Source of the DNA: Mytilus edulis
Taxonomy: Eukaryota
DNA length: 64,000 bases
Assembly: GCF_963676685.1 (NCBI RefSeq)
Contig: NC_092350.1
Location: 57,226,001-57,290,000 of the forward strand
Reading direction: 5' to 3'
Shown: positions 44,269 through 46,708 of the stretch, piece by piece
How positions within the stretch are numbered: the first letter of the stretch is position 1
How the letters are laid out: each line of letters starts with the position of its first letter
Position numbers and translations under genes: made by a program
The notes under the pieces: generated by a model
Told to the model about the DNA's origin: nothing
Database searches by the model: none
The model's input: the letters and a program-made list of their open reading frames with translations, nothing else

Positions 44269-46708
44269 TCATTTATCATTTAATCCCGGGTTGAGAATGT
44301 TTATGAATAATTCTTCCTTCTTCCTCCGGAGAAAATCATTTTGACGATTGACCATATACAATGGAAATATTTTAAATCGTCCATTAGAACAACGATGGAA
44401 ATGGTCGTTTGCCCTGATGAGTGTTAAATCTTTATGGTTGGTTTGCTGTCTATGTAAAGTCATTCTAGTCCGCAGTTCATTTTTTTGTCTCTCCAACATA
44501 GAATTCCTCACAATTTGAACATATGAGAGAATAGATGACGTTTGAACTTTTACAAAACATATTTTGCTTAACAGTAAAATGCTTTCCATTTTTGAAATAA
44601 ATTGAACTTTCTTCTATTAAATTTTGACAAGTCATACATCGTTTATCGGTACATTTTTTTACAATTGGCACAGTTTCATTGAAGTCAAATTTCGAAGATG
44701 TTAAATATCGTTTCAGACTTTTTGACTGTCTTTTGCTGTTGATAATCTTCTTTTTCTGTAAAACTTTGTCCATTCTTTCACTTTTGTGTAAATTTGTTTC
44801 AATTTGTCGCATGAAACTAAATATGTCATAATCTCGCGGATTATAAGTTGTGACAAACGGAATAATTTTGTTTAAATTGTTGGATGATTCCTCGGTAGTT
44901 TCGGATCGCCGTGATTCTGTAGCAATTGGTCCTTTTGTCAGTGCCTTTTGAATTCCGTAATTTATTACTTGTTCTGGGTAGTGTTGCTTCTTTAAATACG
45001 CTTTTAATTCTTCCAGTCTTTTATTGCGTAATATGTCTGTACTTGTAATAGTGATTATTCTAGACGCTAGATTAAAAGGTATATTTAATTTTACATGTTT
45101 TGGATGATTTGAGTAAAAATTTAAATACATATGTGTATCAGTGTCTTTTGAGAAGATATCTGTGACAATTTCATTGTCTTCCGTTATAATAACCAAAATA
45201 TCCAAAAACGGCATTTCCCTGACATTTCTGTTAATAGTGAAACTTATATATGGATTTAAAGAATTTAAATCAGAATGAAAATCTGAGACAGATATATCCG
45301 AATTCCAAATTATAAAACAATCGTCAAGAAATCGTTTCCAGTTTTGACGTATGTAAATGGCAAATCCATTTCCGTACTTGTGACTCATTTTTTCGTATAA
45401 TAATTGTTCCAAATATCCAAGTACCAAAGTGGCATATGAAGGCGCCATTTTAGTACCCATAGCTGTTCCTTTTTTCTGATGATAGTATGTTCCGTTAAAG
45501 TAAAAAATATTTCTTTCTAGTATAATTTTCAAAGATGCAAGGATAAATTCTTTTGTTAATCTGTCTTCAATGATGTTTTCCGTATTTTCTAACCAATATT
45601 TGACGGCTGTAATTCCTAAATCATGAGGGATATTTGTGTATAGGCTGACAATATCAAAAGTAATGAGTTCGGAATTTGGGTTTACAGTCTTTGGTAGATG
45701 ATTTAAAAATTCCAAATCGTCTCGTATAAAACTTGGAACTTCTCGACATAAAGGTTTAAGCACAATGTCTATACAATGGCTTAAATTCTGTGTTACGCTA
45801 TTGGGTCCGCCCACAATTGGTCGAAATTTTAAATCATTTGGTCTTAAAAGTTCGATGTATTCACTGTTTTGTTCTGATATCGCATTTGAAATTTCCTCAC
45901 TTTTGTGAATTTTTGGTAAACCATAGAAATAGCTTTCTGAAAATTTAGAATTTGAAATGTAATCTATCTCTTCTTTAAACAATTCCGTTTCATGTTTCTT
46001 TAGTAATTTCTTAATCATTGTACTTGTTTGTCGGTCCAATTTTTTATCGGTCACCTCATAAGACATTTCATCTTGTAACATATTTAAAATATTATCTCTG
46101 TAATACTCACGGTCCATGACTACAACTGCATTACCTTTATCCGCTTCTTTTATTATTATTGATTTATCTGATTTTAAATTTTGTAATGCTGTTTTCTCCT
46201 CTCGGGTTAAATTGTCCTTGACATTTTTATTGCTTGTAAGTGAATTTGTTTTTAATGTTTTAATAGTTTCTTCTAAATCTTTATCTTTTGTTGGTCTTGG
46301 AATCCACTCTGATCTATTTCTTACCAGTGGTTTTTTTTCTTCTTCTTCGTTTTCTTCATTATCCTCACAAAAAATATAATTTATCCTCAATCTTCTGCCA
46401 GATTCATTAATGTCGGCTCCAAGTTGTGTTTTATCCTCATTAGGTGTTGGTGTAAATTTTAATCCTCTTTTAAAAAGATTTATTTCCCTTAATTGTAATT
46501 TTCTATGCGACAAGTTAATGATTCTAGGGTGCATTTTTTCTGTTGTTAGGCTATTTCCTTCGGAAATGTCTCCTTGTAATTCGTGTTGACTGATGATTGA
46601 ATTTGGTTCCGTATACTGCGGTCTGTTGTTCCTCCCCCTTTGTCGTTCATCCTGCGTTGTCCTAAAAAATGATTCTGAACGTTTTTTCCTATGTATGTAG
46701 TACCATTG
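44269..46708 (-). CDS. PLE reverse transcriptase - GIY-YIG endonuclease (ORF2; one frameshift in an A-run near 44480)
   Basis: ORF 44477-46534 contains ADKGNAVVVM, YGLPKIHK, RPIVGG, DIVSLYTNIP, GTAMGTKMAPSYA, RFLDDCF, PFLDIL, the linker CTDKRCMTC and VIYSLICSNCEEFYVGET. It continues in another frame as ELRTRMTLHR...PGLNDK* (44269). The frame is open upstream to 46708. Confidence 0.9.

Follow-up and report, generated by a model that had tools for sequence, protein, structure and literature searches.

The window analysed here is a 64,000-nucleotide (nt) stretch of the Mytilus edulis genome (NCBI RefSeq assembly GCF_963676685.1, contig NC_092350.1, positions 57,226,001 to 57,290,000), and coordinates refer to this stretch unless another contig is named. 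A broken Penelope-like element (PLE) with two open reading frames (ORFs) lies on its minus strand. It belongs to a family that we designated F1, and the locus comprises the following features.

44053..47716, minus strand: broken, putatively Neptune-type two-ORF PLE of family F1, with 96.1% identity to the intact copy L067 across 3673 nt
46546..47682, minus strand: ORF1, with coiled-coil-like long helices (residues 1-220) and a disordered hydrophilic tail
44269..46669, minus strand: reverse transcriptase (RT), Cx4CxxC linker, and C-terminal GIY-YIG endonuclease (RVT_1 E 6.8e-6)
46546..46708, minus strand: overlap of ORF1 and RT, with the RT frame at -1
46663..46669, minus strand: candidate slippery heptamer T TTT TTA in the ORF1 phase (Phe-Leu)
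46662..46663, minus strand: AG after the T run, which creates a TAG stop in the -2 frame and can double as a cryptic splice acceptor
46532..46534, minus strand: ATG named in the first-pass annotation, private to the window copy
44092..44144, minus strand: hammerhead-like motif with a CTGAAGA core, a GC hairpin, and GAAA, found by regular expression and folding within the 3' terminal repeat region
47718..48211, no strand assigned: unrelated repeat of ~440 bp adjoining the 5' end of the element

The window copy is defunct: its ORF1 contains three in-frame stops (47433, 47427, and 47112), one extra base near 44486 interrupts the endonuclease frame, and the 5' end abuts the foreign repeat at 47718. 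Intact frames were therefore taken from two sister copies with an intact ORF1, L067 (genome G000, contig C1) and L068. The former encodes a 378-aa ORF1 and an 800-codon RT-endonuclease frame counted from the heptamer, in which RVT_1 (E 1.3e-5) and GIY-YIG (E 1.8e-4, aa 712-747) were both matched below the Pfam cut-off; the latter has a 376-aa ORF1 and an RT frame of 624 codons. Both copies carry partial tandem or inverted terminal repeats (1900-nt direct and 152-nt inverted in L067, 932-nt direct in L068), with (TA)n at the 3' junction. Hammerhead-like motifs similar to that of the window were also found by regular expression and folding in families F4 and F5, and Rfam gave no match in four related loci (L067, L113, L114, and L117). 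Copies of the ~440-bp repeat, which ends in (TA)n, lie inverted on either side of the element (47718-48211 and 42897-43286), and its unit occurs in tandem beside L068. A second, different GIY-YIG domain (Pfam E 3.3e-5), which has a C-rich linker, lies directly downstream of the element at 43591-44085 on the minus strand and represents a piece of another, Naiad- or Neptune-like PLE family.

The RT motifs IINLS, RGLKF, ADKGN, YGLPK, FDIVSLY, GTAMG, and FLDDC follow in this order, as in a PLE-type RT with its N1-N3/DKG motifs. The C-terminal GIY-YIG domain contains the CCHH residues (IYSLICSNC..YVGET..H..H). The linker reads CTDKRCMTC, followed after about 25 aa by C-K-S-S-N-V-I-Y, and by eye it resembles the Neptune rows of Fig. 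S2 in PMC8557442 more closely than those of Nematis. Two hallmarks of endonuclease-bearing (EN+) PLEs are present, namely pseudo-LTRs with partial tandem or inverted repeats and the hammerhead-like motif at the 3' end. The single ORF of EN+ elements is not: ORF1 is separate and in another frame, and the RT frame has no start. Compared with the two-ORF Athena/Coprina PLEs (EN-), the element shares a coiled-coil ORF1 but possesses the GIY-YIG endonuclease that they lack. On its motifs, we assigned the element to the Neptune type of EN+ PLEs as a putative member.

Positions 46669-46660 of the minus strand read TTTTTTAGGA, which is translated as H-F-L-G in the ORF1 frame, in agreement with the first-pass annotation. 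The overlap of ~160 nt that it had reported was also found, since ORF1 ends with a TAA at 46548-46546 and the open stretch of the RT frame starts at 46708, and T TTT TTA stands in the ORF1 phase within these 160 nt, as had been read. The same annotation had placed the first ATG of the RT frame at 46534. This codon is indeed there, 45 codons past the heptamer, but it is private to the window copy: among 12 aligned copies it occurs in one, with ATT in seven, a small deletion in three, and TTG in one. The RT frame of the intact F1 sisters reaches its first Met at codon 186, counted from the heptamer, past RT motifs N1, N2, and DKG. Counted in the same way, it is found at codons 158-186 in F1, F3, F4, and F6, at codon 67 in F2, and at codon 44 in F5, always past N1. 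Because intact copies have no usable RT start codon, the RT must be reached via some joining mechanism. The RT frame opens 6-51 nt upstream of the heptamer in the seven reference copies. The window copy also has a second in-phase heptamer, A AAA AAC, slightly upstream of the first, which is absent from the intact sisters.

The genome was searched with the N-terminal half of the RT; of 6419 candidates, 100 were scored, and these gave 106 matches. Seven two-ORF families were obtained: F1 (window), F2 (L117, L032), F3 (L116, L107), F4 (L115, L034), F5 (L114), F6 (L113, L112), and the decayed F7 (L062). Three divergent ORF1 queries against G000 retrieved the same families and fragments, including three fragment loci without the junction, and no eighth family. 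The RTs of F1-F6 are 48-60% identical (F7 was left out of the tree), and ORF1 ranges from 376 to 415 aa across the two-ORF elements. ORF1 and RT differ in frame, with RT at -1, in the intact copies and in six families with a long ORF1, as first read in the window. The heptamer, which the first-pass annotation had singled out for comparison among related two-ORF PLEs, lies in phase in the ORF1/RT overlap of all seven families found, which share ancestry, so that conservation counts of this kind are not independent events. It is located 66-150 nt upstream of N1, at a distance divisible by 3 in the reference copy of every family. The base after T6A is G in all seven families, and the zero frame reads F-L-G in 4/7. 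Exact T6AG is kept in 30 of the 38 genomic copies that cover the junction, counted by place; the eight altered junctions (T5, T7, T8, point changes, or deletions) belong to older copies with 78-92% identity to their family reference. The coding sequence of these elements (19,457 nt) contains 4 other occurrences of TTTTTTA, and from this background an in-phase heptamer would be expected by chance in about 0.7-1.1% of overlaps. Judged from these alignments, the putative recoding signal at the junction is conserved, beyond what chance would give.

Three single-ORF Neptune-type families occur in the same genome (L050-L058). They have frames of 911-928 aa with the same RT-linker-GIY-YIG layout, but differ from the two-ORF elements in having neither a T6A site nor a frameshift. 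Their RTs are 34-40% identical to those of the two-ORF families, and a branch with 100/100 support separates the two groups in a tree made of rows of this genome only.

Homologues of ORF1 were then collected with a profile of six ORF1 domains, which gave 1029 cluster representatives (50% identity clusters) at E <= 0.001; the best 150 of the 1029 were examined. Of these, 102 reach far beyond the domain; the 95 with tails of 95 aa or more were kept, a set that leaves out short fragments and RT-fused models. Ten checked homologues trace to ENA, Logan, and JGI records, and no DNA loci of distant homologues were found in metagenome contigs or viral contigs. The evidence from this set is one of residues, not codons, and the position of these ORF1s upstream of an RT is presumptive. 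Phe-Leu occurs within the last 60 aa in 79/95 of them (from the best 150 of 1029), whereas the mid-tail rate predicts 6.3. K, E, Q, M, and W, whose codons cannot end in U or C, account for 22% of the tails but precede Phe-Leu in 0/79. FF is found in 4 of the 16 homologues without FL, as U UUU UUY would give, and FF is barely enriched overall (7 versus 4.5 expected). In one ORF1 subgroup (P0001, P0006, P0010, P0011, P0013, and others), NGxTYIG before and DKGGG after the Phe-Leu are conserved, and they may mark either a motif of the protein or an RNA signal concealed on both sides of the candidate slip site.

It is scarcely credible that the frame break merely reflects decay of an ancestral single ORF, with the heptamer there by chance. 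Such an origin would suit the decayed window copy and the single-ORF Neptune-type families in the same genome, but two ORFs are kept in near-identical young copies, and the same site recurs in seven families and in 79/95 homologues among the best 150 of 1029. The sole in-frame fusion seen arose by deletion in a decayed copy: in L064, an F6 copy (G000 contig C14, about 67.788 Mb), a short deletion drops the heptamer and puts ORF1 and RT in one frame.

We consider it likely, with a probability of about 0.84, that the site is a programmed -1 ribosomal frameshift that joins ORF1 to the RT-endonuclease. Most ribosomes would stop at the end of ORF1, and the unfused ORF1 product would have a coiled coil followed by a disordered tail. 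In a minority, a -1 slip on U UUU UUA would give a fusion of ORF1, RT, and endonuclease about 1,140 aa long (about 340 + 800), and the ratio of fusion to ORF1 would be low. Any -2 slip would end at once at the TAG right past the heptamer. The gag-pol-like expression of an ORF1-RT-endonuclease fusion put forward in the first-pass annotation gains support from the -1 frames, the heptamer in 7/7 families, and the lack of an ORF1-RT splice joint, at low depth, described below.

Separate translation of the RT-endonuclease, through non-AUG or internal initiation, reinitiation, or a shorter transcript, with the heptamer kept as the protein motif H-F-L-G, is highly improbable. The residues around the site are conserved in the F1 relatives named above (NGxTYIG...FL...DKGGGT in P0001, P0006, P0010, P0011, and P0013), and no conserved stimulatory structure was found there, both of which fit that explanation. 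Against it, intact copies lack an in-frame ATG before N1, TTT TTA codons are used in 7/7 families with RT in -1, and the heptamer follows the opening of that frame by just 6-51 nt. Neither the choice of codons nor the frame would be held constant by a protein motif. Even less probable is polymerase slippage on the T6 run, by which some transcripts would gain a base. Old copies do show instability of the run, with T7, T8, and T5 variants, but six T is short, and no insertion was seen at the site in reads or contigs, at low depth. A fixed terminal A and the codon phase fit tRNA re-pairing better than polymerase slippage.

Regulated splicing would be a different route to the same fusion: TTTTTTAG would serve as the 3' splice site, removal of an intron in the ORF1 tail would give an ORF1-RT fusion, and unspliced RNA would give ORF1 alone. 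We regard it as unlikely. The possibility that this AG is an acceptor had been raised as a caveat in the first-pass annotation, and it proved pertinent, since in one contig of run X2 a host exon (G000:C8:3596212-3596238, L069, then GT) is attached to the element exactly at 46662. This joint implies that the AG can act as an acceptor that captures a host transcript, and it most likely represents capture from an intronic element copy, i.e., exonisation. Weighed as evidence for regulated splicing, the joint consists of 27 loose letters of one contig, and within 40 kb downstream of the host exon in G000 there are zero element copies.

Transcript coverage can be read both ways. Runs X1-X4 are presumed to be RNA, and in three of the four contig runs coverage is missing just upstream of the AG, which would fit splicing; the gap extends over about 46665-46806 in the contigs of X2-X4, no joint bridges it, and we gave it no weight. 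An X1 contig of 2472 nt reads through the junction without splicing, and an X2 contig continues 19 nt past the proposed donor. No splice joint between ORF1 and RT was found in the contigs or reads of eight runs, in which 15-32 raw RNA reads were placed per run and raw depth at the junction was 0-2, which makes the raw reads uninformative. The check for splicing at 46662 that the first-pass annotation had suggested revealed no ORF1-RT splicing, at low depth.

Gene models and donor sites were considered together with the shape of the acceptor. T6AG has the form of an acceptor in 7/7 families, and PLEs are known to retain introns (PMC8557442). Seven public mussel models (P0002, P0004, P0005, P0008, P0012, P0015, and P0018) bridge the gap between ORF1 and RT; P0008 and P0012 use the AG at 46662, and 6/7 leave ORF1 at the same N-K-P-K point. 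The seven models re-enter at three different points, however, as predictors bridging a frame gap would, and the bridging is probably a prediction artefact. The GT at N-K-P-K is missing from 3/10 F1 copies. No strong or homologous phase-2 donor exists in ORF1 across F1-F6: the best candidates lie at unrelated places and score -0.9, 0.6, 2.6, 4.6, 0.6, and -1.6, respectively, on a generic, self-written matrix.

The distant homologues discriminate further between the two routes. The residue after Phe-Leu is G, E, D, or A in 59/79 and so compatible with AG. In the other 20/79 it is Y, S, F, W, P, L, or R (20-21 seen versus about 4.5 by chance), which cannot begin with G; these lack the AG, which favours frameshifting over splicing. 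A splice acceptor in the same phase is often CAG, which gives F-S or F-P. This twin, F-[S/P]-[GEDVA], is not enriched (2/95 homologues versus 3.2 expected). We also considered the conserved G as a sufficient splice signature and rejected it, as the G also makes the TAG of the -2 frame and is not universal in the homologues. In HIV-1, a -2-frame stop likewise follows U6A directly (PMC3458567); by that parallel, the G after T6A is explicable without splicing.

Returning to the frameshift, we examined the RNA downstream of the heptamer. The first-pass annotation had seen no strong stem-loop, and folding bore this out, as four windows at the window site folded no better than shuffles (z +1.20, +1.45, -0.12, and +1.03). 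With 45- and 70-nt folds, no conserved stimulator was found across the seven families (F1 z +0.43 and +1.44). F7 is the sole family of the seven with a classic hairpin, which starts 5 nt downstream of the heptamer (z -2.9), and F5 has a weak downstream structure (z -1.6); the slip may accordingly be helped by a hairpin in some families, such as F7. A simple scan for H-type pseudoknots in the seven families gave none better than shuffles. The G+C content of the 60 nt past the heptamer is 0.37-0.57 in all seven families, compared with 0.28-0.35 in the RT body. As no downstream structure is conserved, U6A is probably slippery enough by itself to account for most of the slip. In vitro, U6A without a stimulator supports low -1 and -2 frameshifting (PMC3458567), which makes a low-efficiency slip plausible.

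The ORF1 protein was characterized along with the junction. An AlphaFold model of P0001 shows helices at residues 2-30, 34-77, 79-111, 131-177, and 180-219, mostly with pLDDT above 80, and a disordered tail. Pfam gave no match for four intact ORF1s, the Atlas gave none for ORF1, and Foldseek gave none at E <= 0.001. Generic helical bundles retrieved by VIA-align (best Z 9.0) were rejected as structural relatives, the score being below the meaningful level for helical models. The single-ORF Neptune-type families have a helical N-terminal region of ~170 aa that shares an IP-x-x-L-x-x-K motif with ORF1. Comparison of the two by hhalign gave a probability of 0.2%, and a second run gave 0.5% with a score of 14.8, versus <=12.2 in 20 column shuffles; an ORF1 HMM did not rank three single-ORF genome sequences above shuffles. 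These comparisons are suggestive, not significant, of homology between ORF1 and the N-terminal region of single-ORF Neptunes. By analogy with Gag, ORF1 may have a structural or RNA-packaging/RNA-binding role.

Athena elements are reported to use a T6A frameshift. A frameshift-with-pseudoknot ORF1 is reportedly the Athena/Terminon arrangement of Arkhipova et al. 2017. The abstract of PMC8557442 (Craig et al. 2021) describes EN+ elements as single-ORF, and PMC6431247 sets EN+ single-ORF against EN- two-ORF elements, whereas the legend of Fig. 1 in PMC8557442 depicts a PLE ORF1 that is separable by a frameshift with a pseudoknot, with the clade unnamed. The premise of the first-pass annotation that PLEs are usually described as single-ORF elements holds only in part, given the frameshifted ORF1 of that legend. 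The ORF1 of a fish Neptune is short (about 420 nt) and non-overlapping, and the passages of PMC12602865 on it mention no frameshift. The parts seen of PMC13159263, PMC3846280, PMC5408684, PMC5718144, PMC6515669, and bioRxiv 2026.07.22.740005 hold nothing on this junction.

The mussel element resembles the frameshifted PLEs of Craig et al. in its coiled-coil ORF1 upstream of RT, the probable join by frameshift, and the hammerhead-like motif near the 3' end; unlike them, it has a C-terminal GIY-YIG and no pseudoknot was found, and the legend names no clade. With Neptune it shares the RT, the Cx2-5CxxC linker, the C-terminal GIY-YIG with CCHH, the terminal repeats, and (TA)n, but Neptune is described as single-ORF, while the mussel ORF1 of 376-415 aa overlaps RT in -1. 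The heptamer, its phase, and the -2-frame stop directly after it are the same as in HIV-1 gag-pol (PMC3458567), and four of the seven families also match it in the zero-frame F-L-G. In contrast to gag-pol, the mussel element is non-viral and lacks LTRs, a conserved stem-loop, and a Gag fold or zinc knuckle in ORF1.

We did not find a U6A frameshift in an endonuclease-bearing PLE in the literature, a weak negative, since figures, supplements, and Repbase entries may hold one. Frameshifted ORF1s in PLEs are already in print; what seems to be new is their breadth in EN+ elements (1029 ORF1 clusters) and the apparent lack of a stimulator. The test of the frameshift against splicing is also added here.

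Tentatively, and at odds we put well below even, we propose that a large unannotated EN+ Neptune-type lineage, with > 1,000 ORF1 clusters, makes its RT-endonuclease solely as a gag-pol-like -1 fusion, mostly without an RNA stimulator (a bare U6A, or a protein or long-range stimulator), and that its ORF1 is the split-off, over-produced N-terminal domain of single-ORF Neptunes. A widespread EN+ branch that likely sets its ORF1:RT ratio by frameshifting would imply a particle-like or RNP step in the PLE cycle, and a two-ORF EN+ branch would link endonuclease-bearing PLEs to the two-ORF telomeric Athena type. One U6A site in seven natural contexts, with and without a hairpin, could also serve as a test bed for the stimulation of -1 frameshifting. 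For annotation, it matters that public mussel models bridge the junction with inconsistent predicted introns and that ORF1 has no Pfam family.

Several other features were noted in the window. A cysteine-rich ORF of 75-nt repeats at 42394-42756 on the plus strand has a weak match to Dickkopf_N (E 3.7e-6), and similar arrays of 75-78 nt at 11325-11504, 23778-23975, and 56463-56657 suggest a small cluster of Cys-rich genes. A 63-bp tandem array of 76 copies, with 94% identity and a strong AT skew, occupies 32378-37179.
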